Shown piece by piece: positions 2,222 through 20,837 of a DNA stretch of 20,865 nt. This DNA is from a virus. The stretch lies in UHGV virus genome UHGV-1781188. The stretch is one strand, 5' to 3'. Below the pieces are notes generated by a model. It did not search any database, was not told the DNA's origin, and saw only the letters and a program-made list of their open reading frames with translations. The translations under genes were made by a program, and so were the position numbers. Numbering within the stretch: position 1 is the stretch's first letter; each line of letters starts with the position of its first letter.

Positions 2222-3536
2222 GACAAGTTTTCCTCCTCTTTGTCAAGTGCTGCATGAAAAATTTACAAACTGGTATGGTAGCATTTTTGCGGCCCTGTTT
2301 ACATTCAGTAATGTATGTATAATCCTTGTTGTGTGGGCGTTTAGACGTCTAGACGGTCAGAAGTCCGCAGGTCAATAACTAATCTATCGGCTGCTAACTA
2401 TATCCCACACAAATAGTAAGAAATATAATTGTTATGTGTGTAAACAGTAACTCATGTTATCAATCCCTGTATGGATCGCCAGTGGTGCGCATAATGGGTA
2501 TTATGTTAAATTGCCCGTAATGATAACAGTTCTCACAATGATAGGTATTCTCATTCACCCCCACAAGATAGGTTGCAAATGTTGTGCCACTGTGTGAACG
2601 GCCTCACCTATTAATTTGCCTCACTGCCTCGATATTTGAGAATTGTTATAAGAATGAGAAGTATTCCCATTTCGTCCGCCTGGCAGCACTCCAGTCGCTA
2701 CCGGCTCCTGACAGGGAGGCACTCCTGTCGGTCAGGTCAAAATCATGGTATAACTGGACCTGTTCAGATATTTCTGGCTGGCTCTTCAGGTCTGTGTGGG
2801 AAAAGCCAACCTCTCAGGCGGGGCAGGGGGGTCATGACGGGAAAATTGCAGGTCAATTAAAAAATTTACGTGGTGTATGAAGCGCTCTTCAGGTAAGGCA
2901 TGTATTATGGGATGAAACCCTCTTCAGGCAATGATATTTGTGGGTGTGATATTTGCTGGAAAGCCAGATATGACGGGACTCCCGGCTGGGCAGGGGTAGT
3001 ACAGACAGGGGAAATATGGAGGATGTAGTTGGGTGAGTTGATCAGACAGGTTGGGTATAGATATGTTACAAGTATGTTAAATATGGAGGGTGAATATCTG
3101 TAGGATTTATGTGTAAAATCAAAGACTTAAGTGGTGTTGTGGTATTTTCTATAAATAATTCAAGTTTAATAGGTAATATTTGTCTCTGTCCGCTTTGTGT
3201 GGTAAGCAAATTCAGATGGTGTTGGTTTACAAGTGTATACATAATATACAAATTAAAGATACAAGAAACCCCCCTCCCCCTTCGGCTACCATTCACCTTT
3301 TCCTCTGACTGGTACTTAAACACTTATTCAGACTCTTCAGGTTATCACCCATATATCATATGGCAGTGACTGGTGTCCTCCGGCCCCTCTTTCGTCACCC
3401 GTCCGCTTCGCCATGCTAATGCCATAGCCAATGGTTCGGTTGTTCACCCTGTTCACTCAGGTGTATCTCCATACCCCTTCAAACCGAAGAGAACAGAAAA
3501 CCCGAATTACTCGGTAAAAGAAAAGAGAAGAACTTA

Positions 3537-3564
3537 ATTTTATCAGGATAGGCAAGAATGTCAA
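3537..3564 (-). promoter_or_regulatory. sigma70-like promoter directed into the non-coding region
   Basis: minus strand TTGACA (3564-3559), 16-bp spacer, TAAAAT (3542-3537); no convincing CDS downstream. Confidence 0.4.
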
Positions 3565-3691
3565 GGCATGACTGCTCACTAAACAAGCAAACAGTCATGT
3601 GTGGGAGGTAAGTGATTGTGGTGGTAGGAAATTTAGTTGAAAGATGTGTTATAGGTGCTTCCAGCACTTTAGCCGGGCAGCTAATTGTGTG

Positions 3692-3907
3692 TCAGTCCAG
3701 CGGTTCATCCTCTACTTCACTGAAATCAATGTTCATGGTCTCTTCCCAACCATCGATCTCAGCACAAGAGTGGAGTTCTTTAGGGTTTACTCCCAAAGCC
3801 TCAGCAACAGAGTCTATATTTAACACCTCTGGCAGGTATGATTCATCGAATTCAAGGTAAATCAGGCCACGAGTGTTGTCAGCTCCACCAAATATCTCTA
3901 TCTTCAT
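3692..3907 (-). CDS. small acidic protein (71 aa), MKIEI-type N-terminus
   Basis: ATG with SD agaggaga upstream; acidic C-terminus; N-terminus resembles other MK(I/V)(E/K)I genes in the block. Confidence 0.6.
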   Translation of the reverse strand: MKIEIFGGADNTRGLIYLEFDESYLPEVLNIDSVAEALGVNPKELHSCAEIDGWEETMNIDFSEVEDEPLD

Positions 3908-4026
3908 AAAATCTCCTCTGGGAATGAGAGTGTGAACAGGATTATACGTCCAAATGCGCAGGAATTATGCACGTTTGCCTCTTCAGGCCATGCTTTAGCA
4001 TGAGGAACCTGTGTGGGCTCGGTGCT

Positions 4027-4239
4027 TCATAGTCTACCACCTCTGAACTCTTCGTGCTCAGGCATAATAGAGAACCAGATATCTACGATGTCCTCCCACG
4101 TCAGGTCATCAGCCTCAGGATCTGTCTGGGACGAAGATGAAGAGTCCTCAGAATCTAAGTTTTCCTCTTTAACTGGCTCATCCAAGGGACATATGGTCAC
4201 TCCTTCGGATGTCTCTTCAGATGCATGTGTGTTGATCAT
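4027..4239 (-). CDS. highly acidic Ser/Asp/Glu-rich protein (70 aa)
   Basis: internal ATG of track ORF 4027-4440; ATGA overlap with the upstream small peptide; about 20 D/E versus 3 K/R. Confidence 0.5.
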   Translation of the reverse strand: MINTHASEETSEGVTICPLDEPVKEENLDSEDSSSSSQTDPEADDLTWEDIVDIWFSIMPEHEEFRGGRL

Positions 4240-4337
4240 GTTCCACCTGTGAGTATTCCGGCAACAGCCGCTATGGACGTAATGATCATCAGGATCACCA
4301 CTAAAACTTCGGACAATGTTCTCATAGTGTATTCCAT
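4236..4337 (-). CDS. small hydrophobic peptide (33 aa, one predicted TM helix)
   Basis: MEYTMRTLSEVLVVILMIITSIAAVAGILTGGT; SD ggaga 5 nt upstream; promoter 4358-4386 just upstream; stop overlaps the next start (ATGA). Confidence 0.45.
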   Translation of the reverse strand: MEYTMRTLSEVLVVILMIITSIAAVAGILTGGT

Positions 4338-4357
4338 ATTCTCCAAATGATGTGTGG

Positions 4358-4386
4358 ATATTATCACTGGAGCTGTAATGTGTCAA
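4358..4386 (-). promoter_or_regulatory. sigma70-type promoter
   Basis: minus strand TTGACA (4386-4381), 17-bp spacer, TAATAT (4363-4358). Confidence 0.55.
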
Positions 4387-4555
4387 TAGAAACGCCGCGA
4401 GGGTTTGGTTAAAATCCGAGCGTATGGTGATTTGGGTCAAAACGGACGTGCGTTCTCGCTACGCTCGAAATATGGAGTTGTTTGTAGGAAGCTCTTAAAC
4501 GCTCTGTAACGAGATTATCTGTCCAAGGTATGCAATCGTGCACCAGACAAAGAAA

Positions 4556-4575
4556 AGGACGCCACAGAGCGTCCT
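4556..4575 (-). terminator. rho-independent terminator
   Basis: aggacgc / gcgtcct stem, 6-nt loop; on the minus strand followed by ttttctttg; directly after CDS 4600-4899. Confidence 0.6.
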
Positions 4576-4599
4576 AGGTGTCTTAAATTTGATATTTTG

Positions 4600-4899
4600 C
4601 TATACCCATGAGGGCTTATCAAGGTTGGAGTAGCTAAAAGGTGTCAAAAGGTGACTGTCAAAATCTCTCAAACTATCCAAATCTTTTTCCTCGTCCTGAC
4701 ACCATCTGTGCCTACATTTATTGTTGTAGTGCATAGAATGCATAGCGTTCTGCAACTTAACAGGCACAAGTGATTCAGGAGTAGTTAGTATTGTTGGGTA
4801 TGCCAGAACCACCTCAAACAGTGGAAACACATCGAAACTAAAGTCTACCTCTGCAGAGGTTGATGGCATGTAGGAGTATTTAGCCGCCTTTGTAGACAT
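4600..4899 (-). CDS. hypothetical protein (99 aa)
   Basis: start moved to MSTKAAKY (SD gaggtgg upstream), which overlaps the stop of the upstream gene. Confidence 0.55.
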   Translation of the reverse strand: MSTKAAKYSYMPSTSAEVDFSFDVFPLFEVVLAYPTILTTPESLVPVKLQNAMHSMHYNNKCRHRWCQDEEKDLDSLRDFDSHLLTPFSYSNLDKPSWV

Positions 4900-4907
4900 A
4901 ATCCACC

Positions 4908-5240
4908 TCACACAGGTTTGATAATACCTTTACCGAATAACTCTTCGTATCTAATCTTGTCCGGATCCCACTCCTGGATAATTTCGAAGACAATATCCAA
5001 CCCGGGAACAATCACTTCTCCAGTGTCAAGCTTAGCAAGAACAAAACCGGAAGGTTGAATGGTTTCCCAGTTACGGCGATCAGAATAAAATACTTCGAAA
5101 ATATCGCCAACCTCAATCCGTTTCTGTTGCTCAAGATGCTCAAGGTTCTCTTTCATACGGATGCAGCGTATTTTTCGTGCAGGCCATAGACCACCTGCAT
5201 CACGTTCATTCAATTCTTTTACAGTGATCGGTATACCCAT
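4908..5240 (-). CDS. hypothetical protein (110 aa)
   Basis: start moved to MGIPITVKE (SD ggaggaga 6 nt upstream); the track start lies inside the terminator hairpin. Confidence 0.6.
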   Translation of the reverse strand: MGIPITVKELNERDAGGLWPARKIRCIRMKENLEHLEQQKRIEVGDIFEVFYSDRRNWETIQPSGFVLAKLDTGEVIVPGLDIVFEIIQEWDPDKIRYEELFGKGIIKPV

Positions 5241-5295: not shown

Positions 5296-5601
5296 TTATT
5301 CTACAGAGCGTTTGAACAGAATGTCTGCCTCGGACATGTGCTCAACCTCTTCTTCGATTTTAGCTCGACGTTTTTCAGCCTCATAGCGAATATCAAACTC
5401 GGTAGCAACCAGAGATTTGATGAATTTAGGAGAATACAGGTGATCCTGCTTCTCAACGAGAATGATATCCTTAATGGCATCTTTCAGATCTTTAATCTGA
5501 AGTTGGAGTTCCACCAGTTCTTCGATTGTTTTGCGAAGGCGATCACGCTCTGCAGTGTCAGAAGGAAGAGAGGTGAACAGTTCAACTTTAGATTTAGCCA
5601 T
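5296..5601 (-). CDS. hypothetical charged coiled-coil protein (101 aa)
   Basis: ATG with SD aaggaga upstream; heptad-like charged sequence. Confidence 0.7.
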   Translation of the reverse strand: MAKSKVELFTSLPSDTAERDRLRKTIEELVELQLQIKDLKDAIKDIILVEKQDHLYSPKFIKSLVATEFDIRYEAEKRRAKIEEEVEHMSEADILFKRSVE

Positions 5602-19541: not shown

Positions 19542-20837
19542 TCAGCAACCACAACTTCCGTAGTGCTTAACCCGTTCTATAACTTCCGCTTGCTTACCTT
19601 TATTGTAAGGACGGGAGTTTGGACTAGACAGGTACCCGGATACACGTCTGATCACACTGATCGTTCCCTCTTCATGGTTTCCACACTCTGGGCATACAAA
19701 GCCTTTAGCTGTTGCACTAAACTCACCAGAGAAACCACACTTGAGACATTTATCCACAGGTTGGTTAATACCAAAATACATAATGTGTTTATACCCGAAG
19801 TCAACAAGAGCCTCTAAAGCATCCAGGTTGTTTTTCAGATTTGGTGTCTCTACGTATCCGATGTTGCCACCAGAGGAGATCATAGCAAAACCTTCTTCAT
19901 ACTTCCACTTATCAAAAGGAGAGCTATTGATCCATACTGGCTGATGGAAACTGTTGGTGAGATATTCATGCTCGTGCTTCAACACTTCAGGATATTCACG
20001 ATCCAGACAGGTTGCAGCTTTATAGCATAGGCTCTCAGAAGGGGTGCCGTACAAGCTAAATGCTAGTCTACTTTCCTTCTTGTATCGCTCACAAGCATCT
20101 CTCATGTGCTGAAGGATTCCAAGAGCTAAAGCCTTGTCACCCTCTCTGCCCAAAATCTGACAGGTTTCATACACACCAATATACCCAATACTGATGGAAG
20201 CGTACCCGTCATAGAAGAGTTTATCAATACTCTCTTCAGGATCCAGGCGAGCAAGAGCGCCTTCACACCACATGATAGGGTTCTGCCCTGCCTTGGTGCC
20301 TTTCAGACGGTTAACCCTTACAAGGTGAGCCTCGTATGCAAGATCCAGATACTCGTCAAGAACGGCAAAGAAATCAACACCTTCCGTCTTAGCTTTTGCC
20401 GCAATCATTGGCAGGTTAAGACTAACAACACCCAAGTTGAATCTGCCGAGGTATTTCTCCTCGCCTGTTTCCAAGTCATTGTATTTGCTAAGAAAACTCC
20501 GGCAACCCATGCTCGTTACTTTACCATCTGTCGAGCCTGTCACTTTACGATTTAGTGGAACAGAAACAAAGTCAGGATAAATCCGCTCTGCAGAGCATTC
20601 CAGAGCTAATCGTTTCAAATCATAGTTAGGATCTCCAGGGTTCATGTTGACACCCTCTTCTAGGAAGAACAGCACTTTAGGGAACACAGGTGTGATACGT
20701 TCTTCACCAAGACCCATTTTGTGGACTTTCAGGTAGTTTTTGGTAATCATTCTACCAAAGACCGAGGTATCCAGTCCTAAACTCAATGTGATGAATGGAG
20801 TCTGCTGTCTCCTCCCTGTGTTTCCACAGGGCCAGAC
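19542..20837 (-). CDS. nrdD: anaerobic ribonucleoside-triphosphate reductase, C-terminal ~430 aa (5' end lost at contig edge)
   Basis: glycyl-radical motif RRVSGY near the C-terminus; C-terminal Cys cluster CLKC...CPEC; ITPVFPKV...EEGVN...DPNYD...LALEC parallels T4/E. coli NrdD; the frame stays open from 20786 to the adapter junction. Confidence 0.9.
   Translation of the reverse strand, partial: VWPCGNTGRRQQTPFITLSLGLDTSVFGRMITKNYLKVHKMGLGEERITPVFPKVLFFLEEGVNMNPGDPNYDLKRLALECSAERIYPDFVSVPLNRKVTGSTDGKVTSMGCRSFLSKYNDLETGEEKYLGRFNLGVVSLNLPMIAAKAKTEGVDFFAVLDEYLDLAYEAHLVRVNRLKGTKAGQNPIMWCEGALARLDPEESIDKLFYDGYASISIGYIGVYETCQILGREGDKALALGILQHMRDACERYKKESRLAFSLYGTPSESLCYKAATCLDREYPEVLKHEHEYLTNSFHQPVWINSSPFDKWKYEEGFAMISSGGNIGYVETPNLKNNLDALEALVDFGYKHIMYFGINQPVDKCLKCGFSGEFSATAKGFVCPECGNHEEGTISVIRRVSGYLSSPNSRPYNKGKQAEVIERVKHYGSCGC

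Follow-up and report, generated by a model that had tools for sequence, protein, structure and literature searches.

The window analysed here is a stretch of 20,865 nucleotides of viral DNA (UHGV-1781188) from a Vequintavirus, an rV5-like coliphage that is 99.6% identical to phage navn. On its minus strand, ~1.0–1.8 kb from the right physical genome end, lies a small cassette built around a gene for a strongly acidic protein of 70 amino acids, which is preceded by an intrinsic terminator, a promoter and a gene for a short hydrophobic peptide. The cassette occupies the last-but-one gene position ahead of the 459-bp direct terminal repeat. A tblastn search of 50,697 phage records recovered the acidic coding sequence in each of the 118 records containing the region and from no other phage, a distribution that, across the records searched, shows the acidic family to be confined to one phage genus.

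The upstream transcription unit is closed by an intrinsic terminator (4556..4575, minus strand), which consists of an 8-bp GC-rich stem followed by TTTTCTTTG. No relative, not even the most divergent, shows a change in the hairpin or T-run, and the terminator is also annotated in phages Murica, Gotham and HdK5. Downstream of it lies a conserved sigma-70-type promoter with an extended -10 element (4358..4386, minus strand), which has 10 of 12 consensus matches plus the TG. Its TTGACA hexamer (4386-4381), 17-nt spacer containing the TG (4366-4365) and TAATAT hexamer (4363-4358) would place the transcription start near 4351-4353. A promoter scan by itself is not above chance, with 10 sites in 3 kb compared with 6.2 ± 2.8 expected; sites with at least 10 of 12 matches number 21 in the window, 19 of them on the transcribed strand. 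The -35 element is invariant in all aligned relatives, and the -10 element keeps the form TA(A/G)TAT, but reads TATGCT in NHEP1. The same promoter was independently predicted as P162 (rV5 paper of 2013, Table S4), and PhagePromoter predicted it in Gotham.

Two conserved non-coding blocks, both entered as genes in some GenBank records, flank the promoter and genes. The first (4388..4470, minus strand), directly upstream of the -35 element and present as a single copy in the window, contains a 10-bp stem formed by TTCGAGCGTA ... TACGCTCGGA. Its identity is at least 95% in 118 of 118 phage records, while that of the surrounding 701 nt drops to 78%; compared with the relatives L006 and L024 it is 0.88–0.92, against 0.58–0.75 for the flanks. 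The second is a spacer 3' of the acidic gene (3962..4026, minus strand) that carries the palindrome CATGCTAAAGCATG and, at 3987-3979, one copy of the motif CCTGAAGAG, which occurs 6 times against 0.21 expected; the spacer is nearly invariant in all relatives. Neither the ORF annotated in the first block in some records nor the 32-aa ORF annotated in the spacer has a codon signal. The possibility that the blocks hold a structured RNA element was considered and rejected, with no Rfam match even at E ≤ 10 and fold z-scores of only -1.5 for the first block and -0.98 for the spacer; the blocks show too little variation for covariation to be seen. A hammerhead-like interpretation of CUGAAGAG was likewise unsupported by any Rfam hammerhead model. 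No terminator-like site lies within 4027-3907, 3' of the acidic gene, so transcription probably runs on into the next gene.

The first gene of the cassette (4236..4337, minus strand) encodes a hydrophobic peptide of 33 amino acids, MEYTMRTLSEVLVVILMIITSIAAVAGILTGGT, if translation begins at ATG 4337, or of 29 amino acids if it begins at ATG 4325. The start is ambiguous in the window: ATG 4337 has GGAG at a distance of just 3 nt, and the universally conserved ATG 4325 has just a weak GGAA ahead of it. The peptide has one clear transmembrane segment, with a highest 19-residue Kyte-Doolittle mean of 2.95, and is a full-length match to PHROG 34195 (E = 4.3e-21; residues 5-33 on profile positions 1-29 of 29). 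Third codon positions in its frame are variable at 17 of 29 sites, as against 6 and 8 at the other two positions. The peptide is kept with 0–3 substitutions in 15 of the 17 relatives, shows several substitutions in L023 and L024, and changes conservatively even in the most divergent genomes.

The TGA of the peptide gene overlaps the ATG of the acidic gene as ATGA at 4239-4236, and GGTGG lies 3 nt upstream of that ATG (-5.9 kcal/mol against the anti-Shine-Dalgarno sequence), an arrangement that suggests translational coupling of the two genes. The overlap is kept in 15 of the 17 relatives and in L023. In L006 and L024 it is absent: the C-terminus of the peptide is altered, its stop lies 10 nt short of the acidic gene, and that gene comes with a Shine-Dalgarno sequence of its own. 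In NHEP1 the peptide is deleted and the acidic gene and promoter are kept. Given this loss and these two uncoupled arrangements, neither coupling nor an obligate partnership would be universal.

In the ORF track of the window, the whole of this interval appears as a single frame of 137 codons (4027-4440). The earlier note resolved that frame into a promoter plus two coupled genes, a model that is fully supported by frame breaks, codon variants and curated annotation; the promoter at 4358-4386, the 33-aa peptide, the 70-aa protein starting at 4239 and the count of 20 Asp/Glu against 3 Lys/Arg all hold. The two-gene model is preferred because the long frame is interrupted in relatives and codon statistics favor the short frames. 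Stops or a frameshift break the long frame in 10 of 17 relatives. Over the peptide region, codon variants in the long frame are 6 synonymous versus 23 non-synonymous, compared with 16 versus 12 in the peptide frame, and the upstream part of the extension, with 5 versus 17, likewise lacks a coding signature. Coding-type substitution patterns are restricted to the two short frames and, among the relatives compared, show purifying selection on both. The last 40 nt of the block upstream of the promoter had also been read as codons of the long ORF. On this comparative evidence, the 137-codon ORF is an artefact.

This gene structure is already in the public record. Curated records of Murica, the BASEL phages and JES2013 carry both short genes separately, at the same position and with the promoter and overlap. 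The two genes are labeled “hypothetical” in several GenBank records, belong to PHROG 16356 and PHROG 34195, and go by family names such as rV5 ORF162, Murica gp148/gp147 and bas48_0136/0137. The promoter and both genes are already on record, and the window genes are ordinary members of their families. In some GenBank records, including that of the type phage rV5, the gene model here is wrong, extended or missing. Since the finding is for the most part a correct re-annotation that is already public, it changes little by itself. For neither product did the literature yield transcript, ribosome-profiling or proteomic data, the rV5 proteome covering virions only, and it yielded no transcriptome, functional screen or anti-defence study naming the acidic gene.

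The acidic protein, MINTHASEE...RGGRL, is encoded at 4239-4027 on the minus strand and has a pI of 4.05. With a net charge per residue of -0.243 it ranks first in acidity among the 47 proteins annotated in the region (mean -0.045, sd 0.078); values of -0.15 to -0.18 are found there for several other small proteins. It is a full-length match to PHROG 16356 (E = 5e-49; residues 1-70 on profile positions 1-70 of 70), and its two parts evolve in different ways. Residues 1-38 (4126..4239), which are acidic, Ser/Thr-rich and predicted to be disordered, vary about equally at the three codon positions (16/18/16 variable columns; 12 synonymous versus 40 non-synonymous variants), while their own frame is stop-free and indels preserve it. 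Among homologues this N-terminal part ranges from 14 to 38 amino acids with 2–10 Asp/Glu, and in some it is reduced to 14 residues with 2 Asp/Glu; in the window it holds 10 Asp/Glu and 1 Lys in 37 residues, or ~28% Asp/Glu. Residues 39-70 and the stop (4027..4125) form a conserved C-terminal module, DPEADDLTWEDIVDIWFSIMPEHEEFRGGRL, in which a Trp/Phe helix is followed by a tail. Here variants are 17 synonymous versus 14 non-synonymous, third positions are variable at 16 of 32 sites versus 8 and 5 at the others, and the columns from D40 to L70 are invariant or nearly so.

Structure prediction draws the same boundary. The AlphaFold2 model of the acidic protein has a mean pLDDT of 62.8 and a pTM of 0.27, with the N-terminal part as coil at pLDDT 50–62 and a sole helix at residues 48-58 with pLDDT ~80. 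This helix is amphipathic (hydrophobic moment 0.51 over WEDIVDIWFSI) and presents W48, I51, V52, W55, I58 and M59 on its hydrophobic face. The protein is predicted to be intrinsically disordered, although the underlying alignment is shallow (hhalign Neff 1.45), so that a fold formed solely in an oligomer or complex could be missed. A homologue search returned 43 clusters of close homologues, each of them on contigs of vequintavirus size, and searches with the whole protein and with its C-terminal 44 residues gave nothing beyond the family itself. Against 1.84 billion representatives, phmmer found two family members and two long low-complexity proteins, none a true outside relative, and searches of Pfam, NCBIfam and PDB sequences returned nothing relevant. 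A likeness to Pup, which is also disordered and acidic with a helix and a C-terminal GG, was rejected at an hhalign probability of 0.1% against the Mtb Pup sequence. The segment DDLTWEDIVD also occurs in ~300-aa proteins on three unrelated IMG/VR contigs (L007-L009, PHROG 23027); these hits were preselected by a 7-residue search pattern and their score is essentially that pattern, so they serve as a lead only.

The earlier note had taken the acidic composition, with its Ser-rich stretch, as typical of DNA-mimic anti-restriction proteins or phospho-regulated host inhibitors, and neither suggestion fares well in that form. Conservation within the protein is lowest in just this Ser-rich acidic stretch. 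AlphaFold2 predicts no fold beyond helix 48-58 (pTM 0.27), and a compact helical fold with a fixed B-DNA-like array of carboxylates was not found in this model, which rests on a shallow alignment, nor is one suggested by the variable acidic segment. A Pfam-A scan at E ≤ 1 gave solely a chance GET2 match (E = 0.11) and no Ocr homology, a profile search of PDB sequences returned nothing relevant, and no ArdA or ArdA-domain homology appeared among Pfam or NCBIfam matches at E ≤ 1. A rigid DNA mimic is not supported by the sequence comparisons or the model. Similarly, the Ser/Thr cluster that phospho-regulation would use as acceptor is not conserved: the SSSSS run is confined to the sublineage of the window, and other members have SLSQS, SPSSL or TLLQS, or lack the segment.

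The gene that follows the spacer (3692..3907, minus strand) encodes a second acidic protein of 71 amino acids, belongs to PHROG 12108, and is the last gene before the genome end. With 19 Asp/Glu and 3 Lys/Arg, its product is the second most acidic of the region (-0.225 net charge per residue). It has a strong Shine-Dalgarno sequence, GAGGAG (-9.1 kcal/mol), and is uniformly conserved, with a mean column identity of 94%; its AlphaFold2 model is of low confidence (pLDDT 49). It is probably co-transcribed with the acidic gene of the cassette.

The preferred reading, to which a probability of about one half is given, is that the locus is a small accessory cassette whose disordered acidic protein docks by means of its C-terminal helix and has a role in host takeover or counter-defence. 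Host RNA polymerase would read the cassette, which follows the terminator that closes the preceding unit, and the conserved sigma-70 promoter with its extended -10 element would direct an mRNA that probably covers three genes, with expression likely to be early. The first product would be the single-pass membrane peptide of 29 or 33 residues, and because its stop overlaps the acidic start, ribosomes finishing the peptide would re-initiate on the 70-aa protein. The working part of that protein would be the 33 conserved residues at its C-terminus, comprising an amphipathic helix rich in Trp/Phe and a short EEFRGGRL tail, which most likely fold on binding a partner, be it a host protein or further copies of the same protein. 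Binding would proceed through helix 48-58, and the variable acidic N-terminal part may be merely a flexible polyanionic tail. Host takeover or counter-defence would operate by protein binding and not by rigid B-DNA mimicry. Among phage ORFans the acidic protein is a clear case in which constraint falls solely on a helix-plus-tail module of 33 residues, and with constraint limited in this way, the hunt for its partner by pull-down or complex prediction becomes straightforward.

The C-terminal helix could instead serve membrane binding or self-association, and it is conceivable, if unlikely, that the transmembrane peptide and the amphipathic helix assemble as a pair at the inner membrane and act on a membrane target. 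Such a pair might mediate superinfection exclusion or, in the manner of small membrane proteins of bacteria, modulate a transporter or protease in the membrane. The ATGA coupling suggests equimolar synthesis of the two products, whose genes lie side by side in 19 of the 20 genomes compared, and the clear transmembrane segment of the one and the hydrophobic face of the other are consistent with assembly. Nevertheless, NHEP1 dispenses with the peptide, L006 and L024 separate the two genes, and no co-variation was seen between peptide and helix variants.

Raw plating data from the BASEL collection bear on anti-restriction. The vequintaviruses Bas48-59 carry 9–17 EcoKI sites and 4–6 EcoCFT_I sites and plate at an EOP of 0.25–1.2 on EcoKI and 0.4–1.25 on EcoCFT_I, whereas EcoRI reduces them to 1e-4 to 1e-3 and EcoRV allows no plaques. 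In the same assay Bas01, with just 3 EcoKI sites, falls to ~1e-4 on EcoKI. The main text of the BASEL study describes these phages as “exceptionally susceptible to RM systems,” which according to the raw EOP tables is true for type II and III only. Because Bas48-59 are unrestricted by EcoKI and EcoCFT_I despite their sites, some anti-type-I function exists in these phages. The numbers matter in showing an evasion by vequintaviruses that is specific to type I restriction and that no known gene explains; in the 72.5 kb of NHEP1 inspected, no anti-restriction gene is annotated. The acidic protein is among the few acidic, presumably early proteins that are open to direct testing.

It is accordingly worth asking how far the acidic protein, alone or with its 71-aa neighbor, might block type I enzymes by nucleic-acid mimicry, whether as a helix-anchored flexible polyanion or as a helix-bundle oligomer that displays acidic tails. 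This seems rather doubtful. The escaping phages carry the gene, Bas48 encodes a 97%-identical protein, and the charge density of the protein (the most negative in the window), its strong host-type promoter and its place adjoining the genome end would all suit such a role, for which very short mimics (sArdA; PMC12548430) and a disordered acidic one (SPO1 Gp44; PMC8208478) offer precedents. Yet the acidic segment is the unconserved part and is far less acidic than the mimic domain of Gp44, no fold is predicted for the protein, and no similarity to Ocr, ArdA, ArdB or KlcA turned up. The case for several other small acidic ORFans is just as good, and nothing ties this gene specifically to the phenotype. 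Improbable too is a narrower version, in which the acidic protein, possibly with the 71-aa neighbor, is the vequintavirus factor for type I insensitivity and acts by a mechanism unlike that of Ocr or ArdA, in which a short conserved docking or oligomerisation helix would deliver a disordered acidic tail, with expression from the cassette nearest the genome end.

There is very little to recommend the view that the acidic ORF is a decaying or functionless remnant, its DNA being kept for other constraints such as the genome end and the conserved non-coding blocks. It could appeal to an N-terminal half that evolves without codon bias and to adjoining non-coding DNA that is itself highly conserved, but the C-terminal 32 codons vary chiefly at third positions and never gain a stop, and the coding sequence is found in every record that holds the region. 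An ATG in frame with the C-terminal module and frame-preserving indels are present in 19 of 20 aligned relatives, the sole exception, IMG/VR contig L005, having a 2-nt insertion just past the ATG. Scarcely credible is a single 137-aa protein made from the TTG at 4440: its frame is open in the window and 7 of 17 relatives and extended forms stand in GenBank (101 aa in rV5 ORF162, 119 aa in phiWec191, 129 aa in HMD-6), but its translation would begin within a conserved non-coding block and then cross the promoter, its extension lacks a coding signature and is interrupted in most relatives, and the PHROG profile covers just residues 68-137.

The preferred reading, a cassette whose acidic protein docks through a short helix, can be set beside several known systems. 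The peptide resembles the small membrane proteins AcrZ, MgrB and KdpF and the type I toxins in being a single-pass protein of ~30 amino acids with a single hydrophobic helix; it differs from them in that no sequence relationship links it to any and that at least one phage, NHEP1, can do without it. Ocr and ArdA are both dimers with a rigid fold. The acidic protein shares with T7 Ocr (gp0.3) and ArdA/sArdA a small size, a strongly acidic composition, a host-type promoter, a position near the genome end and host phages that escape type I restriction, whereas it has no sequence similarity, predicted compact fold or conserved carboxylate array in common with Ocr and ArdA, and its acidic part varies and contains many indels. 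The sArdA proteins are homologues of ArdA domains and act as very short DNA mimics (PMC12548430). SPO1 Gp44, an early host-takeover protein of 27 kDa, is a disordered acidic ssDNA-like inhibitor of RNA polymerase, with a folded DNA-binding N-terminal domain and an acidic middle domain of 57% Asp/Glu and no basic residues (PMC8208478). A negatively charged segment (disordered in Gp44, predicted to be so in the window protein), a location near the genome terminus and host-type promoters are common to the two proteins; in the latter, which has no homology to Gp44, the tail is much shorter, unconserved and only ~28% Asp/Glu, and the conserved element is instead a helix with a hydrophobic face.

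The 137-codon open reading frame at 4027-4440 (minus strand, with a TTG start at 4440) was held by the earlier note to be a promoter followed by two coupled genes, and each of the elements named there lies where it was placed, on that strand. The locus was aligned across 17 relatives (13 GenBank phages, three IMG/VR contigs, and Escherichia phage navn), to which two more divergent metagenomic genomes were later added, and distinct codon variants were counted in each reading frame. In 10 of the 17 relatives, stops or a frameshift break the long frame upstream of Met-68. Where the long frame runs over the peptide DNA, it shows 6 synonymous and 23 non-synonymous variants and 2 stops, while the peptide's own frame shows 16 and 12, with variable third positions at 17 of 29 codons vs. 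6 and 8 elsewhere; the portion upstream of the promoter has 5 synonymous vs. 17 non-synonymous variants. PHROG profiles coincide exactly with the two short products. The interruptions, the codon counts, and the profile limits together argue against the 137-aa frame as a real gene and mark it as an accident of the window's lineage, which also accounts for the over-long annotations rV5 ORF162 (101 aa), phiWec191 (119 aa), and HMD-6 (129 aa). The two-gene model is thus right but already public, as the 70-aa gene and the peptide are annotated in the curated records of Murica, JES2013, and the BASEL phages.

All 118 records matching positions 3600-5000 are of Vequintavirus, rV5-like myoviruses of ~137 kb, with navn 99.6% identical and the 117 others 85-98%. 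Eighteen records, 88-98% identical to this locus of an E. coli phage, carry the label “Campylobacter phage”; the one inspected is marked UNVERIFIED with host C. jejuni, and these records appear to be vequintaviruses, either mislabelled or co-isolated.

A strong intrinsic terminator (4575-4556, minus strand) precedes the cassette, whose promoter consists of TTGACA (4386-4381), a 17-nt spacer with a TG at 4366-4365, and TAATAT (4363-4358) on the same strand. A consensus scan found 10 sites vs. 6.2 expected in 3 kb, weak evidence when taken alone. In every aligned relative, the -35 element is invariant, the -10 element is TAnTAT (TATGCT in the vequintavirus NHEP1), and the upstream TG is kept; NHEP1 retains the promoter despite a sequence replacement immediately downstream. 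Moreover, 19 of the 21 sites in the whole window with at least 10 of 12 matches lie on the transcribed strand, and the homologous site is promoter P162 in Table S4 of the rV5 paper, so that conservation, strand bias, and the published assignment agree on this element. That paper finds sigma-70-type promoters spread over the whole genome and proposes a separate T4-late-like motif upstream of late genes 27-66. The genes around the cassette are on the minus strand throughout and fall in the long transcription unit of genes 82-163 in the same paper. The promoter type suggests early expression of the cassette; a literature search for a transcriptome covering it found none. Three genes upstream, a 101-aa protein (5296-5601) is a homologue of PVP-SE1 gp115 and bears the Pharokka label “transcriptional regulator” in NHEP1.

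The first gene of the cassette encodes the peptide M(EYTM)RTLSEVLVVILMIITSIAAVAGILTGGT, which runs from 4337 or 4325 to 4236 (minus strand; 33 or 29 residues, two in-frame ATGs after a GGAG) and contains one clear transmembrane segment, with a best 19-residue hydropathy mean of 2.95. Of the two starts, that at 4325 is universally conserved; in many relatives it is preceded at 6 nt by GGAG, where the window has GGAA, and the window's GGAG lies only 3 nt before ATG 4337. The peptide is kept with 0-3 substitutions in 15 of the 17 relatives and is also kept in the metagenomic contig L023. The peptide TGA overlaps the ATG of the 70-codon gene (ATGA, 4239-4236), as coupling would have it. In contigs L006 and L024, the hydrophobic core is preserved with conservative Ile/Val/Ala exchanges, but the peptide ends differently, 10 nt before an acidic gene that has its own GAGG; NHEP1 no longer has it, owing to a 36-nt deletion and replaced sequence. 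The peptide is therefore a real gene that is not indispensable, and its presumed coupling to the acidic gene is common without being universal.

The second gene (4239-4027, minus strand, 70 codons) encodes a protein whose acidic composition was correctly noted, with 20 Asp/Glu, 3 Lys/Arg, and a pI of 4.05. Its homologues form 43 clusters at 90% identity, those on long contigs (120-141 kb) being vequintavirus-sized and the others on short fragments. A phmmer search run exhaustively over 1.84 billion representatives added only two long low-complexity proteins, tblastn detected the gene in the 118 phage records already described and in no others, and no relatives were found in Pfam, NCBIfam, or PDB; on these searches, the protein is a genus-restricted ORFan. 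Its two parts evolve differently. Residues 39-70 (DPEADDLTWEDIVDIWFSIMPEHEEFRGGRL) show little or no variation, and their codons change mainly at the third position (17 synonymous vs. 14 non-synonymous variants). Residues 1-38 lack this bias (12 vs. 40) and never gain a stop, and vary in length by in-frame indels, so that across homologues this part has 14-38 residues, 2-10 of them acidic. AlphaFold2, run with the family alignment, predicts a single helix, W48-I58, at pLDDT ~80, the rest being coil at 50-62 (pTM 0.27). The helix is amphipathic (hydrophobic moment 0.51), one face carrying W48, I51, V52, W55, I58, and M59 and the opposite face E49, D50, and D53. In our reading, the locus is an ordinary accessory cassette, in which a membrane micropeptide is paired with an acidic protein modelled as disordered that would act through its conserved C-terminal helix module.

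Two sporadic features of this gene deserve mention. In contig L005, two nucleotides are inserted directly behind the ATG (window 4232), so that the start and the conserved C-terminus are in different frames; this reflects either an error of sequencing or a natural knock-out. The string DDLTWEDIVD also occurs within an acidic stretch of three related ~300-aa proteins (PHROG 23027) on the unrelated IMG/VR contigs L007-L009 (around 2000-2130), followed there by LYDDIEL and a very basic C-terminus; the matches were pre-selected by the search pattern, and the sharing may reflect chance or a short common motif.

The earlier note had proposed a DNA-mimic anti-restriction protein or a phospho-regulated inhibitor. 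By analogy with SPO1 Gp44, the protein might conceivably be a flexible polyanion, although the Gp44 tail is far more acidic and the tail here is not maintained in length. A rigid DNA mimic is unlikely on the structural model: the classical mimics Ocr, ArdA, and sArdA (short relatives of ArdA) are folded proteins with carboxylates in a fixed pattern, whereas the Ser-rich acidic stretch here is the least constrained part and AlphaFold2 predicts no fold, which places the protein outside that group. Phospho-regulation finds no conserved cluster of phospho-acceptors, the SSSSS run being confined to the window's sublineage.

An anti-restriction role can also be approached through plating data for the BASEL vequintaviruses Bas48-59 (PMC8594841, supplementary files 5 and 7), of which Bas48 encodes a near-identical acidic protein. 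These phages have 9-17 EcoKI and 4-6 EcoCFT_I sites and plate at efficiencies of 0.25-1.2 on EcoKI and 0.4-1.25 on EcoCFT_I; by the same source, EcoRI reduces them to 1e-4 to 1e-3, EcoRV allows no plaques, and type III systems restrict them partially to completely. Bas01, which has just 3 EcoKI sites, plates at ~1e-4 in that assay (PMC8594841). The raw tables thus indicate that vequintaviruses evade type I restriction specifically, and for type I they contradict a main-text statement that could be used against anti-restriction; the text of PMC8594841 does not discuss type-I-specific escape. The 72.5 kb of NHEP1 inspected, as annotated by Pharokka, include no gene labelled anti-restriction; three DNA methyltransferases are present there, but vequintaviruses are still sensitive to EcoRI and EcoRV. 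The type I evasion keeps the anti-restriction reading testable. It does not single out the 70-aa gene; several other small window proteins have net charges of -0.15 to -0.23 per residue. One is the neighbouring 71-aa protein (3692-3907), which ranks second in acidity in the region (19 D/E, 3 K/R) and is better conserved than the 70-aa protein, uniformly so at 94% column identity. It too is a genus-restricted ORFan, with a low-confidence AlphaFold2 model (pLDDT 49), and as a candidate DNA mimic it is no weaker than the 70-aa protein.

The cassette lies between two non-coding blocks. The 83 nt directly upstream of the -35 element (4470-4388) keep an identity of at least 95% across all 118 records; in the ~700 nt around them, it falls to 78%. 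This block, present in a single copy in the window and without an Rfam match, includes a 10-bp stem with unvarying arms, the few substitutions falling in loops. A 44-52-aa frame annotated over it in rV5 (ORF161), FV3, HdK5, and BASEL (bas48_0138) lacks a coding signature (7 synonymous, 53 non-synonymous, 3 stops). On codon counts (5 synonymous vs. 21 non-synonymous), a 32-aa frame at 3942-4040 that overlaps the end of the acidic gene (e.g., bas48_0135; some BASEL and NHEP1 records) is probably not a gene. The nearly invariant block between the acidic gene and the next (4026-3962) holds a palindrome and one copy of the 9-mer CCTGAAGAG; as it contains no terminator, the 71-aa gene (3907-3692) is probably co-transcribed. 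Six minus-strand copies of CCTGAAGAG occur vs. 0.21 expected, five within 2782-3987 (terminal non-coding region and spacer after the acidic gene) and another at 20232-20240; no larger repeat unit common to them was seen. The two most divergent relatives, L006 and L024, carry AAGAG-flanked, GC-rich, hairpin-forming insertions of ~46 and ~120 nt directly after the CCTGAAGAG copy that follows the acidic gene (window 3979); a small mobile element could account for them, or the other lineages may have undergone a deletion.

The linear HdK5 record has an identical 459-bp repeat at its start and end, its right end falling at window 2222 and its left start at 2680, and other records break exactly at one or the other position, defining a direct terminal repeat at 2222-2680. 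Hence the ORF-free “non-coding” box on the rV5 paper's map is the terminal region, and the window spans the physical genome ends. A near-consensus promoter (3564-3537; TTGACA, 16 nt, TGnTAAAAT) points into this non-coding DNA; a small T-run hairpin (3514-3502) lies beyond it. From 3564 to 2222, the sequence is 97-100% identical to L006 over most of its length, with a few divergent stretches and identical runs of 171, 141, and 96 nt, whereas adjacent L006 genes are ~75% identical. A search of 2222-3564 for tRNA and Rfam families found none; the region may act in cis in packaging or replication, or may encode a non-coding RNA. Abutting the repeat boundary at 2222 is a tandem array of a 10-bp unit (TGTCATATTA, 3.5 copies, 2186-2221), a candidate site of recognition by terminase or in replication. 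Of all genes, the peptide/acidic cassette and the 71-aa gene lie closest to the right end. In T7, T5, and SPO1, early host-takeover modules occupy a terminal position, and the terminal place of the cassette may, by analogy, recall those modules.
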